From positions 1 to 54,061 of the IMG/VR virus record IMGVR_UViG_3300043602_000277: a DNA stretch of 54,061 nt. The stretch is one strand, 5' to 3'. The notes under the pieces are model-generated. The model had not been told where the DNA came from, made no database searches, and saw only the letters and a program-made list of their open reading frames with translations. Origin of the DNA: a virus (Duplodnaviria > Caudoviricetes). Of this stretch, positions 2,408 through 53,629 are shown piece by piece (the stretch's first letter is position 1; the number at the start of each line of letters is the position of its first letter). The position numbers and the translations under genes are program-made.

Positions 2408-2731
2408 ATGTCAACCGATAACTGGTTCGCGGCGATCTGTTTCCTTGCCGTCTACGTTGCGGCGCTCATGCTGCTGGACGGCGCCCACAAAGCGCGCATC
2501 GCCGAGCTGAAGCAGATCCACCGTGAGCAAGTGAGCGGCTTGCGCAGCTACATCCGCACGTTGAGTCGGGAGCGTCTATGGCTGGAGGCGGAGCTGCAAC
2601 GGGTCACGGATAAGCTTGCCACGGTAGACAAGCGCAACAAAGTACAGGTCGAACCTGAGCATATCCAGTGGCTGCCGCCGTGGCCAACGGCACCTGACGC
2701 AGCGGAGGAATATGAGGAGGAGGATGGCTGA
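2408..2731 (+). CDS. N-terminal TM + coiled-coil protein (lysis cluster)
   Basis: MSTDNWF...LRSYIRTLSRERLWLEAEL; close paralog at 47221-47520. Confidence 0.8.
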   Translation: MSTDNWFAAICFLAVYVAALMLLDGAHKARIAELKQIHREQVSGLRSYIRTLSRERLWLEAELQRVTDKLATVDKRNKVQVEPEHIQWLPPWPTAPDAAEEYEEEDG

Positions 2732-3008
2732 CCTTCTTCCCGAATTCCTGGGCATCTTCGTGCCACTCGAAATCATGCGGCTGGAACAGGTGGGCGGGCC
2801 AAAGCCGGCAGAGTTGGCGGCAGCGTCGGCCTACTGGATGAACCGCCTGGACGCCGGCGAACTAGACGAGCTGCTCTTCCCGGTCAAAGGCAAGACCGCC
2901 GGCAGCGCCAGCATGTTGGTGTCAATAATTGCCTGCCTGGCGTTTGAGAGTGGAGGAGTGCGGGTGTTTGGCCATCACTTTGTGGCCTATGAAGTGGCCG
3001 GTGCATAA
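2724..3008 (+). CDS. Conserved hypothetical protein
   Basis: GGAGG RBS; near-identical paralog at 47501-47932. Confidence 0.8.
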   Translation: MADLLPEFLGIFVPLEIMRLEQVGGPKPAELAAASAYWMNRLDAGELDELLFPVKGKTAGSASMLVSIIACLAFESGGVRVFGHHFVAYEVAGA

Positions 3009-3022
3009 CGAAAAACCCGCCG

Positions 3023-3400
3023 TTAAGCGGGTTCGAGTTCGAGCATATTTAGTTGTTGCATCTTCAGCGGCGTTTTCTGTGCCTGCTTTGGATGCTCGGT
3101 AATGCGTCGACGCTGCTCTTCGAGCCGTTCACGTTTGCGTTGCTCGGTGCAAGCCTGCTCCCGTTGCCGCTCTTCGACCGCTGCGGCGGCTTCAGCCAGG
3201 CCAGCCGGCAGCGACCACGGCTCACGCTCGACAAAGATGAGTTTTCCGTCGGCGATGCCCTCGAACATGACAGTCACCGATGGCTTGCGGGCATTGGGGC
3301 CTTTGCTGGCGACGGAATTGGTTTTGGCGGCCAACCTTTCCAGATTGGCCATCTGTTCGTCCGTGAAACGAAAGTTGTATTGTCGTGTTAGTTTCCCCAT
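3023..3400 (-). CDS. Putative ribbon-helix-helix-like DNA-binding protein, divergent from terS
   Basis: YNFRFTDEQMANLERLA strand-helix start; AGGAG RBS; paralog at 47929-48279. Confidence 0.6.
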   Translation of the reverse strand: MGKLTRQYNFRFTDEQMANLERLAAKTNSVASKGPNARKPSVTVMFEGIADGKLIFVEREPWSLPAGLAEAAAAVEERQREQACTEQRKRERLEEQRRRITEHPKQAQKTPLKMQQLNMLELEPA

Positions 3401-3552
3401 GTGTGTCTCCTATCTGGGCTGGTAGGTTGTGATGCTGCTATGGCCCTGTTGCCGCGTAATGTAGCATGTTTGTTCGGTGTGATCAAGATGACGGGGTTAC
3501 ATTTTGACGGGTTACGATATGGTTTGACAGGTTTTGACAGGATGAGGGCAAT

Positions 3553-4080
3553 GTGGCGCTTTCGGCCAAACAGAAGGCATTCATCAATGAGTACCTATCT
3601 GACTTTAATGCGACCCGTGCAGCACAGCGGGCGGGATATGGCGGGGATGAGAACACCTTAGCAGTCACAGGCAGCAGATTGCTAAGAATTGATAAGGTTG
3701 CCGAAGCCATCGCGGCCCGAATGCAAGAGAAGGCCATGGGCGCGGATGAAGTGCTTAGGCGCCTTGCAGAACAGGCAAGGGCTGAATACAGCGCCTATCT
3801 CACAGCGAATGGCACGGTAGATTTTGCCCGGCTGATTGCGGATGGCAAAGGTCATTTGGTCAAGGGTATCAAAGATACCGCTCAGGGGCGCAACATCGAA
3901 TTTCACGACGCCCAAGCCGCGCTCGTGCAAATCGGCAAGCATCACAAGCTCTTTACCGACAAGGTAGAGGTGGAGCATTCCGGTACGGTCGAAATTACAG
4001 CAGACGAAAGAGCGCGGGCGGCAAAAGAGCTTGAGCAATGGAACGAACAGAAGAAAGCCGGCGCAACATCGAATGGCTAA
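3553..4080 (+). CDS. terS: Terminase small subunit A
   Basis: LSAKQKAFINEYLSDFNATRAAQRAGY motif; overlaps terL. Confidence 0.92.
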   Translation: MALSAKQKAFINEYLSDFNATRAAQRAGYGGDENTLAVTGSRLLRIDKVAEAIAARMQEKAMGADEVLRRLAEQARAEYSAYLTANGTVDFARLIADGKGHLVKGIKDTAQGRNIEFHDAQAALVQIGKHHKLFTDKVEVEHSGTVEITADERARAAKELEQWNEQKKAGATSNG

Positions 4081-5489
4081 AATGCACGCAGTGTGTCGAT
4101 TACTTTATCGAGATGTATGTGATGATTTTTAACGCCACCGACAAGGATTGGGTGCGTTTTGCCCTGTGGCCCGCTCAGTCTGACACATTACAAAAGATCG
4201 GCCAAGAGCGACAAGCGATTGTGCTTAAAGCGCGGCAGCTTGGTCTCTCGTGGCTTGTCCTTTGTTATGCGCTTCATGCCATGGTCTTTAGGCCGGCGGC
4301 GACGATCCTCATTTTTTCTAAGCGCGACGAGGAAGCGGTTGAACTGCTGCGGCGCATCAAGGGCGTCTATGAGCGCTTGCCGGCATGGATGAAACCGCGC
4401 GCAGTCGCTGATGCCGATCACAATTGGGAGCTATCGAATGGCTCCTCAGCCAAGAGCTTCCCGACCACCGGCGGGCGTAGCTATACCGGTAGCCTTGTGA
4501 TCGTAGACGAAGCCGATTTTGTGCCTGACCTCGACTCCTTGATCAACGCCGTCAAGCCGACCATCGACGCCGGCGGGCAGATGGTCATGATCTCGACCGT
4601 GGATAAGAGTCAACCCGAATCGCCCTTCAAGCGCATTTATCGAGCTGCCAAGCATGGCGATACCGGCTGGCGATCTATCTTCCTCCCTTGGCACGCCCGC
4701 CCAGGCCGCACCCCTGAATGGTATGAGATACAACAGCGCGACATTTTCGCTCGCACCGGCTCTTCGGATGACCTTTATCAAGAATACCCGGCCACGGACG
4801 CCGAGGCGATGGCTCCGCGTGAGTTGGACAAGCGCATCCCTGCGGTCTGGCTCACCAACGTCTATGTCGCCGCCAAGCCACTGAGTAAAGAGGAGATCGC
4901 AGCCCAGAAGCTGCCCTCGCTGCCCAATTTGGAGGTGTATCGGCTGGTAGAACCGAAACACCGCTATGTGATCGGCGGCGATCCAGCAGAGGGCAATCCG
5001 AACAGCGATCCGTCGGCGCTGACCGTGCTGGACATTGACAGTGGAGAAGAGGTGGCGGCATTGGCGGGACGCATCGAGCCCAGCACTTTTGCCGCCTATG
5101 CCGACGAGCTCGCCGGCTACTACAATCGGGCGGCCATCATGTTTGAGCGCAACAATCACGGTCATGCCTGCATTGGCTGGCTGCGTGACAACTCCAAGAG
5201 CCGCTTGCTGCGCGGATACGATGACAAGCGTGGTTGGCTCTCCAACTCGCTGGGCAAGGCGCTCATGTACAGCAGCATGGCCGATGCCGCCAGAGATCAG
5301 CAGATGACAATTCATTCATTTGAGACCTATTCGCAACTGGCCTCAATCGAAGCGACCAGCCTAAGAGCGCCGGAAGGCTTACACGACGACCGTGCCGATT
5401 CGGTTGCACTCGCCAACATGGGCAGGCTTGCGAGCTTCAACAAACGAGAAGATCAGGAGACCCCGCCAAGTTCGTCGGGCTACGTTTGA
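4038..5489 (+). CDS. terL: Terminase large subunit A
   Basis: Walker A IVLKARQLGLS, Walker B VIVDE, nuclease GGDPAEG...HDDRADS. Confidence 0.95.
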   Translation: MERTEESRRNIEWLKCTQCVDYFIEMYVMIFNATDKDWVRFALWPAQSDTLQKIGQERQAIVLKARQLGLSWLVLCYALHAMVFRPAATILIFSKRDEEAVELLRRIKGVYERLPAWMKPRAVADADHNWELSNGSSAKSFPTTGGRSYTGSLVIVDEADFVPDLDSLINAVKPTIDAGGQMVMISTVDKSQPESPFKRIYRAAKHGDTGWRSIFLPWHARPGRTPEWYEIQQRDIFARTGSSDDLYQEYPATDAEAMAPRELDKRIPAVWLTNVYVAAKPLSKEEIAAQKLPSLPNLEVYRLVEPKHRYVIGGDPAEGNPNSDPSALTVLDIDSGEEVAALAGRIEPSTFAAYADELAGYYNRAAIMFERNNHGHACIGWLRDNSKSRLLRGYDDKRGWLSNSLGKALMYSSMADAARDQQMTIHSFETYSQLASIEATSLRAPEGLHDDRADSVALANMGRLASFNKREDQETPPSSSGYV

Positions 5490-5561
5490 TGCTGTCTACT
5501 TCTCCTTTTTTTCCAGCCATTGGGGCTAAAAAAAAGTAACCGAGCACAGAAAGCAGGTGGC

Positions 5562-7355
5562 ATGAACACCAAAACGACCATCGGGAGCGCTTTGGGCGCG
5601 ATTACCTTTACGACCAGTGACGTTCCCGCGCCCATAGGGCTCCCAGTCAGCACTTCACGCGTGAGCCGGCTCTTTGACCAGTTGACGTTGGAGCAAGCGC
5701 AGAACATTGTCAACTCTCGCCGCGACGACAACGCTGAGATCAACCTCGACTATCTGCGCGGCGACCACTGGCGCAACGGCGAGGGTTGGGTTGGGCCGAG
5801 GATCAGCAGCTACAACGACCCTGGCACCAGCCAGCTATCCCTGGCTGCGATCAAGAAAGCCTTTGTCTCCCGCAACACGATTGCCGAGGTCACACGCCGG
5901 CAGGTGGGCGGCGTCTTAGGCCGTGACCTGCACTGGAAATTCACAGTCAAGCGCGAGCTCGAGGAGACCGAAAAGACCGACCCTGTCACCCGCATCACCA
6001 AGATGGTCAAAGAACAGCCGAGCGCCGCAGAAGAGGCGTTGATCAATGAAGCCGAAGCTGCCCTGGTCAACTGGTGGGACAAACGCAGCGTCAAGGACGC
6101 CCTGGAAATGATGGACGCCTCAGCCCTCAACACCAAGCGCGGCGTGCTGCGCCTCTACGTGCCACCCGACCTGCGCGACGATGGCGGCAACCTGCCGCCT
6201 GGCGATCTGGAAACCTGCCTCGGTTACATCTGGCTCCAGCATCTCGGCACCAACGAAGATTCGCTCGAGCTCGAGTTTGCCAGCGGCACGGTCTATACCG
6301 AAAAACGTTCACGCCGGCAGCTAGGCGTCTTTACCTACAACGAAGCGCTGGATCTGGTCAGCCAGGAGCAGGGCAGCCAAAGCAACAGCGAGGATGAGCG
6401 CGCCGAGTTGACCTACCTCGACGATGCCGGCAACACCGTAATCCGCGTGATCGACGATGAAGGCGATGTCGAGCCGCCGATGGTGATGCCGCTCGGTGGC
6501 CGCTTGACCATTTTTGAGATGAACCGGACCTGGCTGATCACGCCGCAGGTGATCTCCTTGCAGAAGATGCTCAACCTCTCGCTGACGATGAAGCAGCGCA
6601 ACTCCGTGCAGGCAGGCTTCCTCGAACGCATCTTCTTCAACGTCGATTGGCCGAGCGAAAAGCGCGTCGTCGACGGCAAGGAGACCTGGGTTCGCAAGCC
6701 GATGGAGATCGGCCCGGGAGTTGCTACCGAGTTCAAGGGTCTGGAGATCCGCAACGATGACAACGACGTGACCGGCCATGCCACACCCAGCGTCGTCTAC
6801 CGCGATCCTGTCTCGCCTGCCACCTTCATCGAGACCGAAGAGAGCGCCTACAAAAGCATCCTGCAAGAGGTACAACAGCTCCACTACCTGATCGCGGGCG
6901 ATGCGGTAGTCTCGGGCGAAAGTCGCAAGCAGGCGCGTGATTCCTATACCCAGGACTTAAAGCTTTCCGCCAGCAAGGTGCAAGAGGCGGCGCGTTGGCT
7001 GCTGGAGACCGTGTTGGCCGAAGCCAGCTTCTTTGCCGGACGCGCCGGTGAGTTTGAGGGCTTACGCGCCTACGTGGAGGCGCACATTGACAGCGGGCCG
7101 ATTGGCCCTGATGACATGCGCGTGGCGCGCGAGATGCGCGACGGCGATCTGTGGTCGGAAGAGCGCGCCATGTCCGAGACGGGCGTTGAGGATGTCGATG
7201 CCGAGAAAGCGCGCATCGCCAAAGAGCGGGCGCAACGTTCCGAGCTCGACCAGAAAAACATGGCGGCCGCGCAGCAGTTCATGGCCGAGAACGCACCGCC
7301 AACCGGCAACCTAGCCAACAACCAGCCGAACAACCAAGGAGGCGCCAACGCGTGA
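5562..7355 (+). CDS. Portal protein A (probable)
   Basis: ~600-aa ORF directly after terL; SGESRK motif and DVDAEKARI C-terminus resemble SPP1-type portals. Confidence 0.75.
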   Translation: MNTKTTIGSALGAITFTTSDVPAPIGLPVSTSRVSRLFDQLTLEQAQNIVNSRRDDNAEINLDYLRGDHWRNGEGWVGPRISSYNDPGTSQLSLAAIKKAFVSRNTIAEVTRRQVGGVLGRDLHWKFTVKRELEETEKTDPVTRITKMVKEQPSAAEEALINEAEAALVNWWDKRSVKDALEMMDASALNTKRGVLRLYVPPDLRDDGGNLPPGDLETCLGYIWLQHLGTNEDSLELEFASGTVYTEKRSRRQLGVFTYNEALDLVSQEQGSQSNSEDERAELTYLDDAGNTVIRVIDDEGDVEPPMVMPLGGRLTIFEMNRTWLITPQVISLQKMLNLSLTMKQRNSVQAGFLERIFFNVDWPSEKRVVDGKETWVRKPMEIGPGVATEFKGLEIRNDDNDVTGHATPSVVYRDPVSPATFIETEESAYKSILQEVQQLHYLIAGDAVVSGESRKQARDSYTQDLKLSASKVQEAARWLLETVLAEASFFAGRAGEFEGLRAYVEAHIDSGPIGPDDMRVAREMRDGDLWSEERAMSETGVEDVDAEKARIAKERAQRSELDQKNMAAAQQFMAENAPPTGNLANNQPNNQGGANA

Positions 7356-8251
7356 GCCGCCAACAGCTTATCGCCCTCCTTGCTAACCTAGTCTTTAAGG
7401 GTCATCTGACCCCGACCGAAGCGCGCCTGATCGTCGCAGCCTATGATCGGGGGGATCTGCCGGAAATCGAGAAGCTGGTCGCGCTTGACCAGGAGCAAAC
7501 CGATGAGCGCTGGAAGCTGGCGCTGCTGGCGGTGCTGCTGCTGGTCGGTGGCAGCATTGCCAGGCCGCTGACTACATCTGAGCGCCTGCGCGCGCGCCGT
7601 CTCTTGCCGCTGCGTTTTGAGGAGAGCACGGCGACGTTGGCGGCGCAGGTCGCCAATGGCGGCATCAGCCTGGCGAGGTGGCAGCCGGCGCTCTATGCGG
7701 CGCAGGCCGGCTATGCCATGCAGATGACCACAGGCGGCTATGGCGCCATGCCACCGCTGGGGCTGCGGGATGTCGTCGATGCCGGCATCAAGGCGCAGAT
7801 CCCGTTCATCGAACGCTTTGGCCTGCAAATCCTGGCCCAACGCCTGATTGGTGCTCGCATGAGCGCGGCGGTCATCGCCGGTCGATCTGCGCTCTATGGC
7901 GGTCTCGGCTGGGGTTCCTGGTTCAAGGGCAACGAAGAGCGGGTGCTGAGGCCACAGGCGCCTGGCATCGTGCCGCGGCGCGCTGACGCATCGACAGGCT
8001 GGGTCGTCTACTACCGGGCGCGCGACGACAACCGCACCTGCGGGCCTTGCCATGAGGCGGCAGCCAAAGGGCCATACCTGCCACTGGAGGGGCCATTTCC
8101 TGGCGACGTGTGCAAGGGGCGAGGTCGCTGTCGCTGCACGCGGGAGACGGTCTACGACCTGCAAGCCTGGCAGATCCTGACCGGCATCGTAGCGCCCGCT
8201 GCCAAGCCTCCTGGCGTCGGCGGCGGCGGAAACACGGTCGCCGTGCTATGA
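7352..8251 (+). CDS. Minor head (MuF-like) protein A
   Basis: Follows portal; DDNRTCGPC...PG..C.GR..CRC cysteine motif. Confidence 0.7.
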   Translation: MSRQQLIALLANLVFKGHLTPTEARLIVAAYDRGDLPEIEKLVALDQEQTDERWKLALLAVLLLVGGSIARPLTTSERLRARRLLPLRFEESTATLAAQVANGGISLARWQPALYAAQAGYAMQMTTGGYGAMPPLGLRDVVDAGIKAQIPFIERFGLQILAQRLIGARMSAAVIAGRSALYGGLGWGSWFKGNEERVLRPQAPGIVPRRADASTGWVVYYRARDDNRTCGPCHEAAAKGPYLPLEGPFPGDVCKGRGRCRCTRETVYDLQAWQILTGIVAPAAKPPGVGGGGNTVAVL

Positions 8252-8448
8252 GCGGAGGCAAATCATTGCCAGAGACCGAAAATCGTGATACGCTTGACGG
8301 CGATTCCACCGAGTTTGTCATCGTCGCACGCCGCATACTCGAATCTGAACGCAGACTCTTACTCTCACGCTTGCACGAATTAAACCTGTTGCTCGGCTAC
8401 CCGCAGATCTACACGAGCAGGGAGCATCGGCGACAGGGACGCGAATAA
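8248..8448 (+). CDS. Small conserved helical protein (66 aa), candidate antiterminator
   Basis: ATGA overlap; LESERRLLLSRLHELNLLLGY matches LEQEHRLLIARLHLLRKQLGY of 53332-53538. Confidence 0.75.
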   Translation: MSGGKSLPETENRDTLDGDSTEFVIVARRILESERRLLLSRLHELNLLLGYPQIYTSREHRRQGRE

Positions 8449-8480
8449 TTTTATAGCGCCCAACGGTGTATCGCCCATCG

Positions 8481-8546
8481 GCGACCTAGTTTCCTTTTTG
8501 CTTGCTCACACATGAGCAGCAAAAAGTCGAACGGGTCGCTTTTTTT
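8481..8546 (+). terminator. Long-stem intrinsic terminator upstream of the scaffold gene
   Basis: GCGACC...TTTTTGCTTGCTCA/TGAGCAGCAAAAAG...GGTCGC followed by T7. Confidence 0.7.
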
Positions 8547-8638
8547 ATTGCTATTTTCCGGCCAGGGTGCCGGCAGATATAAACCGTAGCGCGGCCAGGG
8601 CGCCGCGTACCTGCCTGAACGACAAGGAGCGACAGGCC

Positions 8639-9415
8639 ATGTTGATCACTCGCTGGAAGCAGGGAGCCGACATCATTCCTCTGCTGTACGACAACGACAC
8701 ACCGGCTGGCGATGCGCCGACTGGCGGGCTGTCCGAGGAGGCCATGAAGGCTTTCAACAAACGCCTGGAGAAGCTCGACAACAACGCGCAAGCGATGGCG
8801 ATGCTGCTCTTCGGCGAAAATTTCCAGCTGCGCGACAAAGTGCGCTCGATGGAGGGCAGGGTCTCTCCAGAGGGCGCAACCGTCTTAACCGGCGACGATG
8901 CCAAAGCCTGGGACATCTACAAGGCGCTGGGCAAGCCGGAAACCGTCAAGCAGGGTCTTGACGAGCGAGGCCAGTTCCAGGGTGAACTGGAGTCACTGAG
9001 GCGCGAGGCCATTCTACGCAGGGTCGCAGAGGTCGCCGGCTTCAAATACAACATTTTGGCCGACCGCGAAAAGGCGGCGAGGGCGGACAACAAACCGTTG
9101 GCCTTCGAGGTGCGCGAAGTTGAGGTGGATGGCGTCAAAAAGGCGACCGCCTTCATCAAGGAAGGCTCGACCGAAAAGACAGCCGAGGACTATGCCAGGG
9201 AGCAGTGGTCTGACTACCTCAGCGTCCTGCAAGTCACCCAGGGCGGTGACCAGCAGCAGAGCACAACCGCTGCCCACAATGGCACGCGCTTCATCGGCCA
9301 AACCGCAGCCAATGGCGGCAATCGGGGCGCACCTGATCCTGTCGCCAAATTCCTGCAAGAACAAGCCGAAGCGGCGAAGGCGATTAGCAATCCCTTCGTT
9401 ACACCAGACAAGTAA
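8639..9415 (+). CDS. Capsid scaffolding protein (probable)
   Basis: AAGGAG RBS; helical/coiled-coil with a low-complexity C-terminus; upstream of capsid genes. Confidence 0.7.
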   Translation: MLITRWKQGADIIPLLYDNDTPAGDAPTGGLSEEAMKAFNKRLEKLDNNAQAMAMLLFGENFQLRDKVRSMEGRVSPEGATVLTGDDAKAWDIYKALGKPETVKQGLDERGQFQGELESLRREAILRRVAEVAGFKYNILADREKAARADNKPLAFEVREVEVDGVKKATAFIKEGSTEKTAEDYAREQWSDYLSVLQVTQGGDQQQSTTAAHNGTRFIGQTAANGGNRGAPDPVAKFLQEQAEAAKAISNPFVTPDK

Positions 9416-10063: not shown

Positions 10064-11191
10064 ATGTTTACTAATTTTGCCGAAGCCCTGGCAGCGCTAG
10101 GGCCAAATGCCGGCGCGCGCATCATCAACGCCGCGCGCCCCACTTCCGACTATCTTCTCAACACCTTCCTGCCTGAGCGCCTCATGACCGATTACTCGGT
10201 CAACGCCGCCAACATGCTCGTCCGCACGACGATGGCCGGCATGGTCTCGATGGACAGCCCTTACCCGCCAGGCGGATTGGTCGAGCTGCAAACCTTCTTT
10301 GAACAGTCTCTCAAGCTCGGGATCAGCAACCGCATGATCGAGGCGCAGATCCGCCAGCTCCAGCAGTTGCTCATGGGGTTGCAACTCGCCGGTTCGCTGA
10401 CCAATGACTTCCTCCAGCGCGAGGCCTTCAACTTCTACCAAAAAACGGTCGTGCAGGCCATCCTAGACCGCGCCGAGTGGATGCGGGCGCAGGCGATGAT
10501 CTATGGCGCCATCAACTGGACATTCAACCAGAAGCCGGTCTCAGTCAGCTACGGCATCCCTGCCGGCAACTTCCTGACCACACGCACCGATGCCAACAAC
10601 GATTCCTACTCCGACACCGGCAGTAAATTTTGGGAAGATGTCGCCAACGCTCAGGGCATCCTGCGCTACAACCTGCGCGGCGCCGTTATGAACACCGCCA
10701 CCTATCTCAAAATTCTGAGCCAACCGGCCAACAACATCATCGTCCTGGCGCAGAGCAACAACAGCGTCACGGTCACGCGCACGACTTCACGCAGCGGCAA
10801 CACCGTGCAAGACAACGATGCTCGCTACACCATGCAGTTTGTGCTCTACGACCGTGAGGCCGAGGTGATGGACACCACGCCACCGAACCTGGGCAAGACC
10901 GAGATCAAAAAGTTTGTGCCAGATGGCAAGATCATCTACATCGGCGCCAACACCGCCAGTGGCTATGTGGTCGGCGAAGGCTCAACACGCAACCCACGCG
11001 CCGATATGGAGATCGGCTATCACCACATCGCCCCGACCGTTGAAGGCGGCGGCGCACCTGGCCGCTGGGGCCGCATGTACGTGCCGGAAGGCTATCCGAT
11101 GCAACTGATCGCCGAGGGCGCCAGCAACGAGCTGCCCGTCATCCTGGCGCCGGAGAAGATCTGCATCGCTACCACCGAGATGCTGCCGTAG
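10064..11191 (+). CDS. Major capsid protein (lambda gpE-like)
   Basis: 375 aa; LNTFLP, AILDRAEWMRAQAMIYG, VSYGIP and C-terminal LPVI motifs; position. Confidence 0.85.
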   Translation: MFTNFAEALAALGPNAGARIINAARPTSDYLLNTFLPERLMTDYSVNAANMLVRTTMAGMVSMDSPYPPGGLVELQTFFEQSLKLGISNRMIEAQIRQLQQLLMGLQLAGSLTNDFLQREAFNFYQKTVVQAILDRAEWMRAQAMIYGAINWTFNQKPVSVSYGIPAGNFLTTRTDANNDSYSDTGSKFWEDVANAQGILRYNLRGAVMNTATYLKILSQPANNIIVLAQSNNSVTVTRTTSRSGNTVQDNDARYTMQFVLYDREAEVMDTTPPNLGKTEIKKFVPDGKIIYIGANTASGYVVGEGSTRNPRADMEIGYHHIAPTVEGGGAPGRWGRMYVPEGYPMQLIAEGASNELPVILAPEKICIATTEMLP

Positions 11192-11250
11192 TTCACCGAC
11201 TTTTACCGACTTTTACCGACTTTTACCGACTTTTACCGACTTTTACCGAT
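11191..11250 (+). repeat. 10-bp tandem repeat TTTTACCGAC x6 (4 perfect, 2 imperfect)
   Basis: Visible directly between the MCP stop and the next RBS. Confidence 0.97.
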
Positions 11251-11262
11251 AAGGAGCGATCT

Positions 11263-37016: not shown

Positions 37017-37067
37017 AAAAAGAGCCACTGTGACTAATCTGTAGTTAGTCACAGTGGCTCTTTTTTT
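37017..37067. terminator. Bidirectional terminator, perfect 21-bp inverted repeat
   Basis: AAAAAGAGCCACTGTGACTAA-tctgtag-TTAGTCACAGTGGCTCTTTTT. Confidence 0.85.
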
Positions 37068-37076
37068 GGTGAAAAA

Positions 37077-38018
37077 TCAACCACCGACACGCCGGCGCAC
37101 TTCTTGATATTCGCGGCGGATGCCTTCCGGCAGCCAGTGGGCATAGAAGCGGCGCGTGAACTCTTCACTGGCATGGCCCATTGTGTCGCTGACGGCGGAT
37201 AGTTGCATTCCATTGTTGAGAAAGAGCATGGCATAACCGTGGCGGAAACGGTGCGGATTCTGGTAGGGCAATCCTGCTTCATGGCAGCGCCGGTGCAGCA
37301 TCTGGCGCACGCCGTTTCCGCTGAGCGCAGCCCTGGCGCCGCCGATGCCATTGTTGGAGACAAAAAGCGGATTGCCGGGAATGTTTTGGCCGTCGTGCGT
37401 TAAGGGCCGTTTCATCAGGTAGGCGCGGATCATGGGGCCTAGATCGGCGCCACAGGGGACAAGCCTGCCTTCGCCGCCTTTGCCGGTTTGCACCGTCACC
37501 TGCTGGCGAATGACGTCAACATCCGGCTGTTTGAGATCGGTCAGTTCGGAAATCCGCAATCCACACCAAAAGAGCAGATAGATGATGCAGCGATCGCGAC
37601 ATTCAACCCAGGTGTGTTCGCCTATCGAAGCCGTGAGCCGCTGGTACTGGGCCAAGCTCACATAGGGTCGCACTCCATTTGGTAAGCCGGGCGCTTCCAG
37701 ATCAGCCATTGGCGACGCCGGCAGACACTTCACCCGCTTGACGAGATAGTTATACCAGACCCGCAGACTCCGATAACGACCCGCCACCGTGTATGGACTA
37801 TAGCCGGCCTCCTGTTCATGGACGATGAACGCCTCAATCGTTTCGGGTTCGCCCATATCCAACCGGCTTTGCATTGGATCGGCTAACCAGTCGAGGTAGC
37901 GGTTGAGGTGTTGCTCATAGGAGATCAGTGTGTTCGGTGAGCGATTGAGCGCACGCTTCGTTTGCAGGAACCGTGCAACCCAGCTCGACCATAGTTCGAC
38001 ATCTGCGCGTGTTGCCAT
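37077..38018 (-). CDS. int: Tyrosine integrase
   Basis: GLRISE (R), GKGG (K), HRFRH, MGH, FY catalytic residues. Confidence 0.95.
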   Translation of the reverse strand: MATRADVELWSSWVARFLQTKRALNRSPNTLISYEQHLNRYLDWLADPMQSRLDMGEPETIEAFIVHEQEAGYSPYTVAGRYRSLRVWYNYLVKRVKCLPASPMADLEAPGLPNGVRPYVSLAQYQRLTASIGEHTWVECRDRCIIYLLFWCGLRISELTDLKQPDVDVIRQQVTVQTGKGGEGRLVPCGADLGPMIRAYLMKRPLTHDGQNIPGNPLFVSNNGIGGARAALSGNGVRQMLHRRCHEAGLPYQNPHRFRHGYAMLFLNNGMQLSAVSDTMGHASEEFTRRFYAHWLPEGIRREYQEVRRRVGG

Positions 38019-47056: not shown

Positions 47057-47218
47057 ATGCCACGCGGCGATCTGGCGCTGTTCCTGTTCGTATGCAGCCT
47101 GGCGGTCTTTTTTGCCGAGATGCAGTACCGGCGTGAAGCGTCTACGCGTTGGCTGTGTCTTGCGCTAGTCTGGATTACGATTGTGGCCATGCTGATCTAC
47201 GTGTACAGCGGGGCTTAA
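47057..47218 (+). CDS. Small 2-TM membrane protein, 53 aa; not in the ORF track
   Basis: MPRGDLALFLFVCSLAVFFAEMQYRREASTRWLCLALVWITIVAMLIYVYSGA fills the gap exactly. Confidence 0.55.
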   Translation: MPRGDLALFLFVCSLAVFFAEMQYRREASTRWLCLALVWITIVAMLIYVYSGA

Positions 47219-47220
47219 CC

Positions 47221-47520
47221 ATGTCAACAGACAATTGGTTCGTCATCATCATGTTTATCGGCGTGTACATCTGTTGCCTGCTCCTGCTCGACGGCGCCCA
47301 CCGTGCCCACATCGCCGCGCTGAAGGGGGCGCATTACGAGCAGGTGGCATCCTTGCGCTCCTACATCCGCACGTTGAGCCGCGAACGGCTGTGGCTGGAG
47401 GCGGAGCTGGCACGCGTCAAGGACAAGGCGAAGCAGGTGCAGGCTGAGCCGGAACATATCGAATGGATGCCGTTGCAGTGGTTACCGCCGTCCGAGGAAT
47501 ATGATGGCGACCGCAATTGA
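47221..47520 (+). CDS. TM + coiled-coil protein, paralog of 2408-2731
   Basis: Direct sequence similarity. Confidence 0.8.
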   Translation: MSTDNWFVIIMFIGVYICCLLLLDGAHRAHIAALKGAHYEQVASLRSYIRTLSRERLWLEAELARVKDKAKQVQAEPEHIEWMPLQWLPPSEEYDGDRN

Positions 47521-47932
47521 GCTGTTGCCGGAATTTATCGGCATCTTCGTGCCGCTGGAGATCATGCGCCTGGAAGAGGTGGGCGGGCCGAAACCAACGG
47601 AGTTGGCCGCAGCGTCTGCCTACTGGGCGGATCGCCTGGACGCCGGCGAGCTTGACGAGCTGCTCTTCCCGGTCAAGTGCAAGACGGCGCGCAGCGCCAG
47701 CATGTTGGTGTCAATCATCGCCTGCCTGGCGTTTGAGACGGGCGGCGTGCGGGTCTTTGGACACCACTTTGTTGCCTATGAACCAGAGCCCGCACATAAA
47801 CAGCCCTGGCACAAGCCCACCGTGGTTTATGTGCCGCTACAGGGAACGGGCTTTGAGGTCGGTTCGGACATTGACGGACAGGACGGCACGTGGCCGCCGC
47901 CACTAATGGACAAAGAAAAAACCGGCTGCTAA
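47501..47932 (+). CDS. Paralog of 2724-3008 with a C-terminal extension
   Basis: Direct sequence similarity. Confidence 0.8.
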   Translation: MMATAIELLPEFIGIFVPLEIMRLEEVGGPKPTELAAASAYWADRLDAGELDELLFPVKCKTARSASMLVSIIACLAFETGGVRVFGHHFVAYEPEPAHKQPWHKPTVVYVPLQGTGFEVGSDIDGQDGTWPPPLMDKEKTGC

Positions 47933-48279
47933 GCCGGCTCTAATTCCATCTGTAATTGTTCGAGCTTGACAGGCGTTTTCTGTGCCTGCTTGCCATAGGT
48001 GATGATGCGCTGCCTTTGCTCTTCACGCTGCACCTGTTCCCGTTGCCGCTCTTCCACCGCCTCAGCCTGTTCGACAAGGCCGGCGGGCAGCTCGTAGGGA
48101 TTGTGCTCAATTACGTCTAGCTCGCCGCGGCCGATTCTGCGAATCATGACTTGCCAGCTCGGTATGCTACGCCTGGCGGGGCCACGGGTGGGACGCGAAC
48201 GGGTCTGCACGGCTAGTTCTTGCAGCCGCTCCAGTTCGGCGGCGGTCAGGTCGATGCGGTGATGTTCTCGGTGTTCCAT
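47929..48279 (-). CDS. Paralog of 3023-3400 (RHH-like)
   Basis: LPAGL.E.A.AVEERQREQ...KQAQKTP...LEPA shared; GGAG RBS before ATG 48279. Confidence 0.75.
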   Translation of the reverse strand: MEHREHHRIDLTAAELERLQELAVQTRSRPTRGPARRSIPSWQVMIRRIGRGELDVIEHNPYELPAGLVEQAEAVEERQREQVQREEQRQRIITYGKQAQKTPVKLEQLQMELEPA

Positions 48280-48522
48280 GTGTTTCTCCAATCTGAACAG
48301 GGCGGGCAAGTTGTGATGCTGCTGTGGCCCTATAGCTACGTATATAGCACGAATGTTAACGGTAATCAAGATGACGGGGATACAATTTTGACAGGTGCTG
48401 TCAATTTTTCCGCCGCCTGCCCCTCTCCGCCGCCACCCAGAGGGTTCCCGCCGCCAAAGGCTGACAGCGGGCGCGAAGTAGCAGGACTGCTAGCGGCGGG
48501 CGACATATGACAGGTTGAGCCA

Positions 48523-49005
48523 ATGGCTTTATCGGCCAAACAAAGCGCATTCGTAGAGGAATATTTGCGATGCTGGAATGCGACAGACGCTTATCAGACC
48601 GTTTATCCAAAGTCGAGTCGGGACGCGGCCAGAGCACACGCAGCGCGATTGGTAGCAAATGGTAGCATTGCCGCAGAGATTCAGCGCCGTGTAGATGAAC
48701 GCGCCATGTCCGCCAATGAAGTGCTTGATCGTCTTGCGGAGCAGGCCAGGGCCGGCTATAGCGCCTATCTCACAGCGGACGGTGCAGTAGATTTTGCTCG
48801 GCTGGTCGCCGATGGCAAGGGACACTTGGTCAAGGGCATCAAAGATACAGCGCAAGGACGTAATATCGAGTTTCACGACGCCCAGGCCGCGCTCGTGCAA
48901 ATCGGCAAGCACCACAAGCTCTTTACAGATAACGTGCAACAATCCGGTGAGGTAGTGGTAAAAGTCCAATATGGCGATGACGGAACTGACAGTACGCCTG
49001 AATAA
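48523..49005 (+). CDS. terS: Terminase small subunit B
   Basis: LSAKQSAFVEEYL..WNAT.AY; central part nearly identical to TerS A. Confidence 0.92.
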   Translation: MALSAKQSAFVEEYLRCWNATDAYQTVYPKSSRDAARAHAARLVANGSIAAEIQRRVDERAMSANEVLDRLAEQARAGYSAYLTADGAVDFARLVADGKGHLVKGIKDTAQGRNIEFHDAQAALVQIGKHHKLFTDNVQQSGEVVVKVQYGDDGTDSTPE

Positions 49006-50242
49006 GCCACACCCCAAACAGCGCCAGTTTCTGCGCTGCCCGGCCAAGCGCATCGTGGTGCGGGCCGGCCGACGCGGCGGCAAAACGGTCGGCATGGCCA
49101 TCAAGGCCGTGGAGAGTTTTCTGCGAGGACACCGCGTGCTCTACGCCGCGCCCACGGCTGACCAGATCAACACCTTTTGGCGCCATGTGCGCGATGCTCT
49201 TCAGCCTTGCATCGACGCCGGCCTCTATTACAAGAACGAAACCGAGAAGATCGTCGAATTGCGTGGCACGGAGCAGCGCATCAAAGCAAAGACCGCTTGG
49301 AACAGCGACACTCTTCGTGGAGACTATGCCGATCTGCTCATCCTCGATGAGTGGCAGTTGATGAATGAAGATGCCTGGGGCGTCGTCGGTGCGCCGATGC
49401 TTCTGGACAATGACGGCGATGCGGTCTTTATCTATACGCCGCCATCGGCGCGTACGGCTGGCACCAGCAAGGCGCATGACAAAAAACATGCGGCCAAGCT
49501 CTTTGCGGCAGCGGCTGCCGATACGACGGGGCGTTGGGCGGCCTTTACCTTTAGCAGCCACGACAACCCCTATTTGAGCCAAGATGCTTTGGGGGAAATT
49601 GCCGGCGACATGAGCAATCTGGCCTATCGCCAGGAAATCATGGCTGAGGACATTGACGAGGTTCCGGGGGCATTGTGGACGCGGGCGAACTTAGAAAAGC
49701 ATCGTATCAAGTCAGCGCCTTCAATGTACCGCATCGTCGTGGCGGTAGACCCGGAAGCCACGGCCACGGCCACCAGCGCCGAGACGGGCATCATCGTGGC
49801 AGGCATCGACGAAAACGAGATCGGCTATCTCTTGGAGGATTGTACGCTGCGGGGATCGCCTGGCGAGTGGGGTATGGCTGCCGTGCGCGCCTTTGATCGC
49901 TGGGACGGCGATCACATTGTCGCCGAAACCAATAACGGCGGTGACATGGTGAAATTTGTGGTCGAGGCGGCTGCCAAGGAGTTATATCGGCAGGAGGAGC
50001 GCAAGAGCGACCGTATACCTTACAAGAAACTGCACGCCAGCCGGGGAAAACATACGCGCGCCGAGCCGGTATCAACGCTCTACGAGAATGGCCGTATTAA
50101 GCATGTCGGTGCTTACGCCGAGCTGGAAGATCAGTTATGTACGTGGTTGCCGGGTGATACGAGTCCCGATCGCTTAGATGCGGCTGTGTGGGCCTTTACC
50201 GAGTTGATGCTTTCAGAGAAGAAAAAAGCCGGAACATGGTAA
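48971..50242 (+). CDS. terL: Terminase large subunit B (different lineage from A)
   Basis: Walker A AGRRGGKT, Walker B LILDE, VVAVDP, SPDRLDA. Confidence 0.95.
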   Translation: MAMTELTVRLNKPHPKQRQFLRCPAKRIVVRAGRRGGKTVGMAIKAVESFLRGHRVLYAAPTADQINTFWRHVRDALQPCIDAGLYYKNETEKIVELRGTEQRIKAKTAWNSDTLRGDYADLLILDEWQLMNEDAWGVVGAPMLLDNDGDAVFIYTPPSARTAGTSKAHDKKHAAKLFAAAAADTTGRWAAFTFSSHDNPYLSQDALGEIAGDMSNLAYRQEIMAEDIDEVPGALWTRANLEKHRIKSAPSMYRIVVAVDPEATATATSAETGIIVAGIDENEIGYLLEDCTLRGSPGEWGMAAVRAFDRWDGDHIVAETNNGGDMVKFVVEAAAKELYRQEERKSDRIPYKKLHASRGKHTRAEPVSTLYENGRIKHVGAYAELEDQLCTWLPGDTSPDRLDAAVWAFTELMLSEKKKAGTW

Positions 50243-50258
50243 GAATGAGTGAGGAACA

Positions 50259-51758
50259 ATGTCAGACATCATCCTGATCGCTAACAAAGACGGGCAACCG
50301 GTTGGCGCCATCCCGCGGCCCAGCGTAAACGCCCGCTCCGTCCTCAGCGACCGCCTGGCCCTGGGCGGCTATGGCACATCGTTCAGTGGCGCCCGTGACT
50401 ACTTCGATGTGCTGGGCTATCCCAAGGCACTCAGTATCGATGCCTATTGGGGCAAGTTTGAGCGTGATCCGTTGGGCGGGCGCATCGTCGAATTTCCGCC
50501 GGCAGAGACATGGCGGGATACGCCGACGGTCAAGGATGGGCGTGATAAGGATGCCCTCGACGACACCGCCTTTGCTAAAGCGTGGGCCGACTTTGCCGAA
50601 CGAATGCGCGTCTATCACTACTGCAAGCGCGTCGACATCCTGTGCGGCATCGGGCGCTTTAGCATCCTCCTGATTGGCGTGGCCGGCGGCGGTGATTTGG
50701 AGAGCGAAGTCAAGCGCGTCACTAGCCTTGACCAGATCCTCTACCTGCGCCCGTACGGTGAGCAATCGGTCGAGGTGACCGAATACGAGAACGACCCGGC
50801 AAGCCCGCGCTTTGGCCTGCCGCGCATCTACACGGTCACGTTTGCCGATACCAATACCCTGGGCAATATGGGCACCATTCAGCGCCGCGTCCATGCCAGC
50901 CGCGTGATCCATGTCGCCGAGGGGCTGCTGGAAAACGACGTGTACGGGATGCCGCGGCTGCAACGCGTCTATAACCTGCTCGACGACATCCTCAAGTTGG
51001 TGGGTGGGGCTGCCGAGGCCAGTTGGCTGCTGATGCGGAAGGGCTTTGTACTCAACATCGACCCGGAAGCGGAACTATCCGCCGAGGCCGCCGCCAGCAT
51101 CGAAGAGGAGTTTGACGAATACGAGCATGGTCTACGCCGCTTTATGAAAACGCGCGGCGTCACGGTCAGCGACCTTGGCAGCGAAGTGGTTGACCCGTCG
51201 GGGCCGTTTAGCGTCATCATCGGCCTGATTAGCGCCGCCACCGGCATCCCGCAGCGCATCCTGCTTGGCAGCGAGCGCGGCGAGCTGGCATCTTCGCAAG
51301 ACGGTGCCAATTGGGCGGGGGCCATTGCCAGCCGCCAGCTCAACTTTGCCGAGCCGACGATCCTGCGCCCGCTGATTGACCGCCTCATCCAGTGGGGCGC
51401 TATGCCGGCGCCCACGCAGGGCCGCTATACCGTCGTGTGGGATGAACTCTTTGAACTCAACGACCAGGAACGGGCCGCCATCGCCGTGGCCTGGGCCGAT
51501 GCCATCCAGAAGCTAGCAGCCGTCTACGGTATGCCGCCGGTAACGATGGAGGAATGGCGCGGCGACTTCTCGCCCTTCCCCGGCGAATTGCCGGTGACGG
51601 CCCTGGAGCCTGTACCGCCGCCCACCATACCCGCCAATCTGCCTGGCCAGGATGTGCTGGGGCAAGTGGCCGACCTGGTGGGCAACGCCGGCTACAGTGG
51701 GCCGGAAGCGTTTGCGCTGGTCAACGCAGCGGCTAGGCTGATTGCGAGGCAAGGATGA
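50259..51758 (+). CDS. Portal protein B (DUF1073-like)
   Basis: DPASPRFGLP..Y, RVHASRVIH, IPQRILLGSERGELAS. Confidence 0.85.
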   Translation: MSDIILIANKDGQPVGAIPRPSVNARSVLSDRLALGGYGTSFSGARDYFDVLGYPKALSIDAYWGKFERDPLGGRIVEFPPAETWRDTPTVKDGRDKDALDDTAFAKAWADFAERMRVYHYCKRVDILCGIGRFSILLIGVAGGGDLESEVKRVTSLDQILYLRPYGEQSVEVTEYENDPASPRFGLPRIYTVTFADTNTLGNMGTIQRRVHASRVIHVAEGLLENDVYGMPRLQRVYNLLDDILKLVGGAAEASWLLMRKGFVLNIDPEAELSAEAAASIEEEFDEYEHGLRRFMKTRGVTVSDLGSEVVDPSGPFSVIIGLISAATGIPQRILLGSERGELASSQDGANWAGAIASRQLNFAEPTILRPLIDRLIQWGAMPAPTQGRYTVVWDELFELNDQERAAIAVAWADAIQKLAAVYGMPPVTMEEWRGDFSPFPGELPVTALEPVPPPTIPANLPGQDVLGQVADLVGNAGYSGPEAFALVNAAARLIARQG

Positions 51759-52018
51759 CACCAGAACAGCTAGCCAAGTGGGCCGAGAACCAAATTCAAG
51801 CCCTGATCCGCATCGGCTATGACGCCTCTGAGGCCGAGCGCAGCGTCAATTGGGTGCTGATGCACTTGCCGCCAGGGGCCGATCCAAGAACGTACGTATT
51901 CCCGGCTGAGACGCTGAGTGAACCGTTAGATAGCGCCGCTGTCGAGGGCGCACGCATAGCATGGTATACAAATGATGCGATCCCCAACCGCTACAAACGT
52001 TTACTCGACGCACGCTAG
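51755..52018 (+). CDS. Hypothetical head-module protein
   Basis: ATGA-coupled to portal B. Confidence 0.65.
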   Translation: MTPEQLAKWAENQIQALIRIGYDASEAERSVNWVLMHLPPGADPRTYVFPAETLSEPLDSAAVEGARIAWYTNDAIPNRYKRLLDAR

Positions 52019-52688
52019 CCCGTCGCCAACGCTGCCCGGCTACACCTTTGAGGATGAGCTGGGCCGCTACCGTTCCAACGTGTCGGGCCGTTTCGTGGCG
52101 CGCAAGGATATTCTGTCGCTGACGGACGCCCAGATCAACGCCAGCGAGGCGCGCATGACCGACCTGACGACGGCGGTGATGGAAGGGCGTATCAGCCCGA
52201 CGGTATGGCAGGAGGCCATGAGGACGGAAGCCAAGCAGCAAGTGCTGTCACAGGCCGCCCTCGGCTCAGGCGGTTGGGAGAGAATCAGCCAGCAATCCTA
52301 TGGCCGCGCCGGCGCTGACTTGCGCCAACTCTACGCCAAGATTAGTGGCACGGCTGCCGACATCGCAGACGGCAAAATCACGATGGCGCAAGCGCAGGCA
52401 CGCGCCAACGAATACGCCGGTCACGGTCGCAGCCACTTCTACACGGCCGAGCGGGAGAAGGTCAGGCCATCGGCGCCGAACAAAGTGTTCCTGGAGCGGC
52501 GTATGTTGGGCGGGGGCGGCAAAACGTGTAGCGATTGCGTTTCCTTCTATGACCAGGGTTGGCAGCCGTTTGGCCTGCTACCGCCGCCCGGTGTGGACAG
52601 CGTATGTCGTGGCAACTGTAAGTGCAGTCTGATTCGCATGGAAGTCGAAGCGGGCACCGTGGGCGAGTGGATCGGCGGCAAGAAATGA
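51972..52688 (+). CDS. Minor head (MuF-like) protein B
   Basis: GRYR...GRFV; TCSDC...PG.DS.C.GNC.C motif; start uncertain. Confidence 0.7.
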   Translation: MMRSPTATNVYSTHASPSPTLPGYTFEDELGRYRSNVSGRFVARKDILSLTDAQINASEARMTDLTTAVMEGRISPTVWQEAMRTEAKQQVLSQAALGSGGWERISQQSYGRAGADLRQLYAKISGTAADIADGKITMAQAQARANEYAGHGRSHFYTAEREKVRPSAPNKVFLERRMLGGGGKTCSDCVSFYDQGWQPFGLLPPPGVDSVCRGNCKCSLIRMEVEAGTVGEWIGGKK

Positions 52689-53329
52689 AACGAATCTTTG
52701 TAACCTTTGGCACCGGGCCGCACGTCGAATATCTGAACATCAGCCGGCCATCGTTTATAGCCTATGCCGAGCGTCACGGCTATGACTATCAGGAAATCTA
52801 TATTCCGAGCGACCGCCCAGCATCGTGGAGCAAAATCCCTGCAATGCTACAAGCTCTTACGCTGGCCGATGAGGCATTGTGGGTTGATGCCGATGTCGTC
52901 ATCGTAGACGGCAGCAGGGATTTGGCCGCAGAAGTGAGTATCGACGCCATCCAAGCCGTAGTTTTACACACCTATCATCGTGGCTTCTTCCTGGGCCACG
53001 TGCCCAGCGCCGGCGTGTGGTTGGTGCGCCAAGCCATGCGCCCTACGCTCACGCAGATCTGGACAATGACGCAGTACCTGAACCATCCCTTTTGGGAAAT
53101 GGCTGCATTCATCGAATTGATGGGCTGCACCTTCAACGGCGATCGGATATTTCCTGTTACCTTGACCGAACCGACCAATCTTTATCGCAGCACCCAATTC
53201 CTTGATGAGGATTGGAACTCGATTGACACGCTCAACCATCAGGCCACGCCGCGCTTTATGCACATGCCGGCGCTCACGCACGAACAGCGCCTCGCTGAGA
53301 TGCACTTCTGGGCGGGGCAGGCAGTGTAG
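52685..53329 (+). CDS. Glycosyltransferase (GT34/MNN10-like)
   Basis: YAERHGYD...SWSKI...LWVDADVVI (DxD)...AGVWLV...WE..A. Confidence 0.8.
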   Translation: MKRIFVTFGTGPHVEYLNISRPSFIAYAERHGYDYQEIYIPSDRPASWSKIPAMLQALTLADEALWVDADVVIVDGSRDLAAEVSIDAIQAVVLHTYHRGFFLGHVPSAGVWLVRQAMRPTLTQIWTMTQYLNHPFWEMAAFIELMGCTFNGDRIFPVTLTEPTNLYRSTQFLDEDWNSIDTLNHQATPRFMHMPALTHEQRLAEMHFWAGQAV

Positions 53330-53331
53330 AG

Positions 53332-53538
53332 ATGAGCGAATCACGCGCAGGCTATCTCACGAACCAAGCCGCAAAGGTTGTTGCTCAAAACGGCAATAAG
53401 TGTGATACCATTACCGTCAACCGGGCCGACCTTGAGCAGGAACATCGTTTACTCATCGCCCGCTTGCATCTGTTACGCAAGCAACTCGGCTACGCACCGC
53501 TGACCGACAAAGAACAACAGCGACAAGCCGCTAAATAA
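53332..53538 (+). CDS. Small conserved helical protein (68 aa), paralog of 8248-8448
   Basis: Shared E.RLL..RLH.L...LGY motif and equivalent position. Confidence 0.75.
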   Translation: MSESRAGYLTNQAAKVVAQNGNKCDTITVNRADLEQEHRLLIARLHLLRKQLGYAPLTDKEQQRQAAK

Positions 53539-53564
53539 ATAATTCCGCCTCACGGTAAAGCCCT

Positions 53565-53607
53565 ACGGCGCAATTCTGGTCAATTCCAGAGTTGCGCCGT
53601 TTTTTTT
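53565..53607 (+). terminator. Intrinsic terminator upstream of the DUF2213-like gene
   Basis: ACGGCGCAATTCTGG-tcaatt-CCAGAGTTGCGCCGT-T7. Confidence 0.85.
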
Positions 53608-53629
53608 GTTGTTTTGGAGCGCCATCGCA

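Follow-up and report, generated by a model that had tools for sequence, protein, structure and literature searches.

A four-part unit ahead of capsid-building genes in soil phages is probably a new switch for their transcription

To our knowledge, late-gene control in tailed phages is understood in a few model systems only. The DNA investigated here, virus record IMGVR_UViG_3300043602_000277 (54,061 nt with a 127-nt terminal repeat; this whole stretch is referred to as the window), carries two head modules and raises the question of why, in both of them, a small gene with a promoter-like sequence inside it, followed by a short RNA motif and a strong intrinsic terminator, stands ahead of a scaffold-type gene. 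The original prediction proposed that the small protein, or a ligand, binds the RNA motif and permits read-through into the scaffold and capsid genes. Comparison with related loci indicates that the small gene, its embedded promoter, a hairpin and the terminator form a four-part unit ahead of capsid-building genes in soil phages, and that this unit is probably a new switch for their transcription.

The small genes of the two modules, copies A and B, had been taken to belong to one family, and their products are indeed homologous by BLASTP (42% identity over 48 amino acids (aa), E 3e-10); both genes lie where they had been placed, although the length of 67 aa given for the protein is replaced by 66 and 68 aa. 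A word-indexed search returned 34 relatives of the small protein, all metagenomic, and a full HMMER profile search (E≤1e-3) gave 69 cluster representatives at 50% identity, nearly all of 50-110 aa; no longer fused forms turned up, which is weak evidence. A metagenome scan found four loci with alignment A1 and none with alignment A3, and the one weak locus from a scan of genome contigs (L022) was rejected, as the family hidden Markov model did not confirm it. For the codon and site comparisons we used 18 distinct family genes, namely the two window copies and those of loci L001-3, L006-9, L011-14, L016-19 and L021, which encode proteins of 61-75 aa. The conserved part is formed by the C-terminal 40 residues (I.V.R..LE.EH..L..RL..LR..LGYPPL.TGK..RR), and the C-terminal tail is basic. 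Across 13 lineages, the invariant Leu and Arg residues use four to six synonymous codons, including both CTN/TTR and CGN/AGR, and the entropy at codon positions 1, 2 and 3 is 1.10, 0.74 and 1.47 bits. Because the invariant residues vary in their synonymous codons, the small gene is, on this comparison, truly coding, with its C-terminal domain under protein-level selection. The family had been described as unrecognised, and the searches agree: no match was found for the small protein in Pfam, PHROGs or NCBIfam (Pfam-A at E≤0.01 for either window protein) or in the ESM Atlas, and a profile search of PDB sequences gave nothing below E 0.45. AlphaFold2 (AF2), run with a 71-sequence alignment, predicts a disordered N-terminus, a helix at residues 31-52, a short helix at 60-67 and no strands, with a mean predicted local distance difference test score of 69.8.

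The otherwise variable N-terminal half carries a different kind of signal. A TG-extended -10 had been noted inside both copies and is present in both; its 9-mer TGMTACNMT recurs in 17 of the 18 family genes, where it is read as the codons NNT-GMT-ACN-MTN (TG-n-TACnAT), the exception being L016 with a different -10, TAAAAT. In these 17 genes the promoter has the form TTGNNN-17/19-TGnTACnAT and lies inside the N-terminal coding region; TTG, always that Leu codon, heads the -35 hexamer, and the spacer to the -10 is 17 nt in 13 genes and 19 nt in four, including copy B. The residue preceding the -10 varies (Cys, Arg, His or Tyr) but its codon always ends in T, and the following residue is Asp (GAT, nine genes) or Ala (GCT, eight genes), hence T-ending in 17/17; elsewhere in those genes 31 of 91 Asp and Ala codons end in T. 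A consensus scan independently calls TTGAAA-17-TACAAT in L013, TTGAAC-17-TACAAT in L011 and TTGAAT-17-TACAAT in L008, each with the TG. Since the spacing between promoter and conserved protein domain differs by up to ~14 codons among the family genes, the constraint is on the DNA and not on the peptide, and by this comparison the embedded promoter is held by nucleotide-level constraint. From the end of the -10 to the small-gene stop codon there are 118-157 nt, and the terminator then follows; neither a boxA consensus nor a second conserved -10-like pause element was seen by eye 3' of the promoter in the 18-gene alignment. With the start codon 5' of the promoter and no internal start conserved, a transcript from the embedded promoter cannot, from this layout, encode the small protein.

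The conserved motif reported just after the stop of both copies was recovered exactly as described, and it is not confined to them: a hairpin and a terminator follow all 18 distinct family genes, and also two later loci, L154/L155 and L163. All 18 sites fit an imperfect hairpin of 27-31 nt, within the ~30 nt before the terminator stem, composed of an outer helix (P1), an internal loop and an inner helix (P2). P1 has 3-5 bp, mostly CGCC:GGCG, and P2 has 2-4 bp; the strands of the internal loop are 3-5 nt long and YNAC-like (UCAC/CUAC, CAAC/CAUC, UAAC/UGGC and similar), and the hairpin loop has 3-7 nt (GAAA, GCAA, GGAAA, CAAAA, AAA or UAU, with UGAAAA also seen). On its own the hairpin is worth -4 to -10 kcal/mol, a folding energy that is reached by 5/300 shuffles for copy A, 4/300 for copy B and 1-15/300 per lineage over 13 lineages. 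Compensatory changes occur in P2, which is GG:CC in some lineages, GA:UC in the L001 group and L003, CG:CG in L016 and GC:GC in the divergent L163, and which alternates between GGUG:CGCC and GGUG:CACC. With 13 sites aligned by fitting them to the model, 90.5% of the cells pair, both P2 pairs show double changes, the covariation score is 0.224 versus 0.134 with 0/500 shuffles reaching the observed value, and slid partners pair at 34-50%. The covariation proposed as a check is thus found in the inner helix, and conservation extends to the CGCC:GGCG pairing, the competitor of the terminator base.

Of two other readings of this element, that as two separate CC-N4-GG mini-hairpins is disfavoured, its pairs being broken in L001, L018 and L003 while P2 is kept, and that as a CsrA-type sponge was rejected, since GGA is present in some lineages only. 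Rfam gave no match in the window and only tRNAs at the gathering threshold in 10 loci; the best sub-threshold match, DUF2800 RNA, reached 19 bits against 60.2 and contains many non-standard pairs. No second well-scoring copy by the hairpin model R1 was found elsewhere in the window or in the compared loci. The pattern CGCCYNACGGN{3,8}CCYNWCGGCG, searched over viral contigs, matched at least 118 loci, with the family gene at one of them (L082, the contig of L002) among the matches listed, and it is too loose in GC-rich coding DNA to be informative either way. As a separate observation, otherwise unrelated viral contigs share a ~50-nt recurrent element, CTCATCAG...CGCCTYACGG...CGCCTCACGGCGTTTCGGTCTA, with two tandem CGCC-N4-GGCG hairpins (loci L035, L037, L038, L041, L050, L058, L059, L066, L069, L070, L083, L087, L089, L095, L099, L100, L102, L103, L123 and L125); a hammerhead identity was rejected for it, Rfam giving no gathering-score match in the eight loci tested.

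The intrinsic terminator said to overlap the final GGCG of the motif is borne out in both copies, with shuffle z values of -5.9 and -6.9 for the folded regions. A strong terminator of -22 to -37 kcal/mol lies downstream of 18/18 family genes; the automatic scan found it at 15, and those of L002 (interrupted U-tract), L016 and L017 were added by follow-up. At all 18 sites the P1 3' strand reaches to base 4-8 of the terminator stem, whose first four to eight bases are that strand. Because the outer helix of the hairpin uses these bases, the hairpin and the full terminator are mutually exclusive, and because -4 to -10 kcal/mol stand against -22 to -37 kcal/mol, the hairpin alone cannot outcompete the terminator. 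The strand of the window that carries the structural genes has no clean strong terminators other than those of the two units. Between the copy A terminator and the scaffold-position start there are also two copies of GGCCAGGG(T/C)GCCG (8560-8573 and 8593-8606), each of which could form a small hairpin.

What, then, are these parts placed between? The small gene overlaps the upstream stop by 4 nt in 8/18 loci and lies within 11 nt of it in the others; the usual upstream gene encodes a MuF-like minor head protein or a protein of 133-136 aa, and the usual downstream gene a scaffold (PF06810) or DUF2213/protease-type protein. The unit is found at two positions, between MuF and scaffold genes and, in L002 and L003, between TerL and portal genes. 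In 6/8 measured loci (copy B, L001, L003, L011, L012 and L163) the next gene begins 17-45 nt past the stem, in copy B with its DUF2213/phrog_760-type gene at 29 nt; it lies farther off in copy A (98 nt) and L002 (~110 nt). As a start at 17-45 nt leaves no room for an own promoter, the next gene must, in most loci, be expressed by read-through. The terminator stem starts 13-39 nt past the small-gene stop in 15 loci, and 292 nt (L012), 414 nt (L014) and ~950 nt (L017) past it in the three that hold cargo in the promoter-terminator unit (L012 4186-4427, L014 4198-4465, L017 4186-5100), where the hairpin stays with the terminator. This cargo consists of a membrane ORF (open reading frame) of 56-65 aa common to all three, joined by a tRNA-Met in two of them (L012, L014) and by more small ORFs in the third (L017), and only in these 3/18 loci is there an expressible gene between promoter and terminator. 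Masking by a ribosome at the stop codon is ruled out as the switch by the 292-950 nt between stop and hairpin in the same loci. A conserved stretch is also seen between the terminator and the scaffold start in L012 (~4526-4570), L013 (~4256-4300) and L014 (~4657-4700); it reads TTTACGTCAA(A)CTGG(G/A)(G)ACGGT(C)TAAACCAGG(G)AG and contains a CUGG/CCAG hairpin adjoining the ribosome-binding site.

The linkage between the hairpin and the small protein was followed in 17 loci found via the MuF-like protein, of which L147, L154, L155 and L161 have the family gene and L163 a weak match. Model R1 reaches 33.1 bits for L154/L155 and 16.8 bits for L163, and in the loci without a family gene it finds nothing better than E 0.98; the hairpin element is thus, by these comparisons, always accompanied by the small-protein family. 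Five of the loci without the family gene (L148, L149, L152, L153 and L156) have instead an unrelated 66-aa ORF, ending in ...LEIRRSDRKQ.A.F.LA.ILR.LDT.KKSE, together with ~150 nt of structured spacer and another conserved terminator, GACGCCCTA...TAGGGCGTT; L157 has no terminator. This alternative arrangement lies at 3185-3580 in L148 and at ~3900-4150 in L149, and the L148 copy stands directly before a DUF2213 gene near-identical to that of the window. A scan with the DUF2213 protein returned itself and one weak locus only. The presence of an unrelated small ORF and terminator before the same gene type may point to specificity types that can be exchanged, as N/nut types are among lambdoid phages.

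Sequence comparison gives the parts and their mutual placement, and from these we infer how they may work together. The near-consensus, host-type promoter in the 5' half of the small ORF would start a transcript that covers the remaining 118-157 nt of the ORF, a part left untranslated since the start codon is 5' of the promoter, and then runs into the hairpin and the strong terminator. A protein that clamps the hairpin would shorten the terminator at its base, allowing transcription to continue into the scaffold, capsid or portal genes. The most likely clamp would be the small protein, which would be made only from the transcript of the upstream terminase/portal operon, so that expression of the upstream packaging and portal genes would be a precondition for switching on the capsid genes. 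A strong terminator before the most-needed genes, a promoter that feeds it and a weak, conserved hairpin in need of stabilization together point to factor-dependent antitermination, and the small protein is the best candidate for the factor only because it is always linked to the hairpin element. We therefore put forward, tentatively, a self-contained, portable transcription-attenuation cassette before morphogenesis genes that would act by antitermination of the ribonucleic antiterminator (RAT) type with the small protein as the likely clamp. With somewhat greater reserve, the small protein may found a new family of phage RNA-binding antiterminators, the hairpin, promoter and terminator being a plug-in timer cassette that could be placed before any morphogenesis block, so that capsid or portal genes are read after the packaging genes.

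In size and geometry the nearest analogue appears to be the RAT hairpin of BglG/LicT, while ANTAR and AlpA may be considered analogues in logic. The RAT is described as a ~30-nt imperfect palindromic leader hairpin that partly overlaps an intrinsic terminator, which is blocked when dimeric BglG, SacY or LicT binds (PMC12591593). The hairpin described here is likewise of 27-31 nt, quasi-symmetric and overlapping with four to eight terminator stem bases in 18/18 sites, a likeness of architecture only. Hence the resemblance to BglG/RAT that had been suggested holds for the architecture and not for the protein, which is predicted to be helical: the CAT domain (55 aa, a four-stranded beta-sheet dimer) is absent from it, as judged from the lack of a Pfam match and of strands in the AF2 model, and at 61-75 aa it has no PRD/sensor domain. 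Also unlike those systems, the cassette is phage-borne, is placed at head genes and has its promoter inside the ORF of the candidate regulator. In ANTAR systems (EutV, NasR, AmiR) the protein stabilizes small tandem hairpins that exclude the terminator (PMC3369931, PMC8934654, 10.1101/2020.09.27.315978). Although the element can be drawn in that way, as two CC-N4-GG mini-hairpins with the second within the terminator arm, its loops would be of 4 nt rather than hexaloops, covariation favours the single P1/P2 hairpin, and the small protein has no ANTAR domain by Pfam.

The layout of a promoter followed by a nearby intrinsic terminator that has to be bypassed for late or lysis genes is shared with lambda Q (pR'-tR') and AlpA of Pseudomonas. 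AlpA recognises an element within the promoter, binds RNA polymerase and bypasses a downstream intrinsic terminator (PMC7969949, PMC9371919). Unlike the cassette, whose conserved cis element adjoins the terminator, Q and AlpA load via promoter DNA and act processively, and the small protein shows no sequence relationship to them (none by Pfam, PHROGs or NCBIfam, and nothing below E 0.45 in the PDB profile search). The N protein of lambda is small, largely disordered and basic, and its RNA site, with a short hairpin, lies just after a small gene (cro-nutR-tR1). The small protein and the hairpin, with its A-rich loop just after the small gene, are similar in these respects, whereas here the hairpin overlaps the terminator and the basic tail is C-terminal. 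The 5' strand of the hairpin reads GCC-YNA and not the boxA core, and GAAA, GCAA, GGAAA or CAAAA loops occur in part of the lineages only.

Other explanations of the same parts have to be weighed. Phage morons are promoter-gene-terminator units within late operons, and the promoter and terminator might likewise bound an autonomous transcription unit or small RNA, made by the host polymerase, for example in lysogens, with the terminator insulating the capsid genes, the hairpin serving 3'-end stability or another RNA function and the small protein having an unrelated role, for example in head assembly. The unit has its own promoter, of the plain sigma70 type, and its own terminator, it lies between late genes at more than one position, it carries cargo between small gene and terminator in L012, L014 and L017, the phage is temperate (integrase, repressor-like gene), and the predicted terminated transcript of 190-250 nt resembles lambda pR'-6S-tR'. 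Still, we consider such a unit unlikely, since unlike in morons the promoter is inside a conserved gene that it cannot express, most loci are cargo-free yet keep all parts, synonymous sites in the transcribed part of the ORF vary freely, leaving only hairpin and terminator conserved as RNA, and the capsid genes, 17-45 nt past a strong terminator, would still need read-through. A processive mechanism of antitermination, as in N/nut, Q or AlpA, is a further alternative: the small protein, or the RNA itself (compare put RNA), would make the polymerase terminator-resistant after its start at the internal promoter, with no local competition with the terminator stem. P2 loops such as GAAA, GCAA, GGAAA, CAAAA and UGAAAA are boxB-like in many lineages, the N-terminus of the small protein is predicted to be disordered and its C-terminal tail is basic, and the order of promoter, short leader, intrinsic terminator and late genes is that of lambda Q and of AlpA (for AlpA, PMC7969949, PMC9371919). 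This explanation leaves the conserved overlap between hairpin and terminator base unaccounted for, though, and there is no Pfam match to AlpA, Q or N families, the boxA consensus and second -10-like pause were not seen by eye after the promoter, and there are no further strong terminators downstream on that strand in the window; we therefore regard it as quite improbable.

A simpler possibility would be an ordinary terminator at the end of the packaging/portal operon, with the motif and the promoter-like sequence kept by descent or coding only. Translational coupling of the small gene to the upstream gene (the 4-nt overlap in 8/18 loci) is what the last gene of an operon would show, GC-rich stem bases are common in terminators, and one third of control hairpins permit similar upstream pairing. 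Four observations make this decidedly improbable, namely the constraint on the promoter at the nucleotide level across chemically different residues, the compensatory changes in P2, the hairpin travelling with the terminator upon cargo insertion, and the most highly needed genes being without room for a separate promoter. The CC-YNAC-GG repeats might also be recognised as DNA, by the small protein or by some other DNA-binding protein, and act on transcription or packaging. The units can be read as direct repeats (GCCCAACGG twice in L006, CGCCCAACGG/CGCCCATCGG in copy A), but the covariation of P2 preserves pairing and not sequence, the site is fixed relative to the terminator, and the loops are direct, not inverted, repeats in inverted arms, which a two-fold symmetric RNA duplex fits better than a DNA operator. 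A DNA site of this kind would therefore be very surprising.

Several observations also weigh against the antitermination that we propose. Relatives without the family still have a different terminator before the same scaffold-type gene, so read-through in them needs another mechanism, and no RNA-binding fold is recognisable in the small protein, the candidate antitermination factor. The pair counts come from a model-fitted alignment, which leans towards the model, and the lineages are related by descent, so the locus counts are not independent. Of 43 control terminator-like hairpins in the compared DNA, 14 can likewise pair upstream at ≤-6 kcal/mol. The information content of the hairpin is low: the R1 model, derived from sites like that of copy B, gives copy A 11.3 bits (E 4.8) and L008 11.6 bits, and it does not detect L006. 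Promoter activity, termination and read-through are themselves predictions. The interpretation given originally is partly supported, by the conserved competition between P1 and the terminator, the covarying inner helix, the conserved promoter, the linkage to the family and the downstream gene without room for a promoter.

The presence of two copies in one genome has a separate explanation. The flanking head genes of the two modules had been called unrelated, which applies to TerL and portal, for which BLASTP finds no similarity between modules A and B, and not to the MuF-like proteins, which are distant homologues (24% identity, E 1e-5), or to the terS regions, where 2471-3965 and 47284-48935 share 76-85% DNA identity. 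Relatives of the module A MuF-like protein match PF04233/phrog_24776. Up to residue 105 the module B gene of DUF2213 type matches its relative; from there it is fused in frame to an SH3/M23 endolysin at the window start, and the second, partial module spans 47149-54061 and 1-730. An 18.8-kb contig from run X1, the probable source sample, reads across the fusion junction; at 53940 the contigs of three other soil runs diverge, all with one common different continuation. From the truncation and fusion of the DUF2213-type gene and the likeness of the terS regions, the two copies are best read as a recombinant with a truncated second head module and not as a designed duplication. The temperate character of the phage is indicated by an integrase gene (37077-38018) and a repressor-like gene; the integrase gene is adjoined by a perfect 43-nt hairpin (37020-37062) with T-runs on both strands, as in a bidirectional terminator. 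Between the major capsid stop and the ribosome-binding site of the next gene there are six tandem copies of a 10-nt unit, TTTTACCGAC (11182-11259). The coordinates of the features are collected in Table 1.

Table 1. Positions in the window of the two units and of the surrounding head genes.
Feature	Position	Strand	Details
Small gene, copy A	8248-8448	+	66 aa; ATGA overlap with upstream gene; N-terminus variable, C-terminal domain conserved, I.V.R..LE.E(H/R)..L..RL..L...LGY....T...RR
Internal sigma70-type promoter, copy A	8266-8294	+	-35 TTGCCA 8266-8271; 17-nt spacer; TG 8286-8287; -10 TACGCT 8289-8294
Antiterminator-type imperfect hairpin, copy A (putative)	8457-8483	+	P1 8457-8460:8480-8483 (CGCC:GGCG); internal loops CAAC/CAUC; P2 8465-8468:8472-8475 (GGUG:CGCC); loop UAU; dG -9.9 kcal/mol
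Intrinsic terminator, copy A	8480-8547	+	stem-loop 8480-8540 + T7, -32.5 kcal/mol; first 4 bases are the P1 3' strand
Small gene, copy B	53332-53538	+	68 aa
Internal promoter, copy B	53381-53411	+	-35 TTGCTC 53381-53386; 19-nt spacer; extended -10 TGATACCAT 53403-53411
Antiterminator-type hairpin, copy B (putative)	53546-53570	+	P1 53546-53549:53567-53570; internal loops UCAC/CUAC; P2 53554-53556:53560-53562 (GGU:GCC); loop AAA; model R1 31.8 bits
Intrinsic terminator, copy B	53565-53608	+	15-bp stem 53565-53600 + T8, -27.7 kcal/mol
Module A terS	3553-4080		
Module A TerL	4038-5489		
Module A portal	5520-7355		
Module A MuF-like minor head protein	7352-8251	+	Cys-motif C-terminus; stop overlaps small gene start (ATGA)
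Module A scaffold-position gene	8639-9415	+	downstream of copy A terminator; decoration-like gene next
Module A major capsid gene	10064-11191		
Module B terS	48523-49005		
Module B TerL	48971-50242		
Module B portal	50259-51758		
Module B MuF-like gene	51972-52688		phrog_24776
Gene upstream of copy B	52685-53329	+	weak glycosyltransferase-like match
DUF2213/phrog_760 scaffold-protease-type gene, 5' part	53630-53944	+	~105 codons; cut at ~53940

Taken together, these data describe a compact unit of ~300 bp that has moved between head modules and in which a distinct kind of constraint acts on each of the four parts; they also illustrate that the conservation of residues in a small phage ORF can be a by-product of a promoter lying within it. 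If the proposed antitermination is true, a minimal RNA-binding antiterminator, with a domain of ~40 residues, would join the known classes and would offer a small orthogonal switch for synthetic biology, and the unit would explain how some phages order the expression of portal and terminase before that of the capsid.

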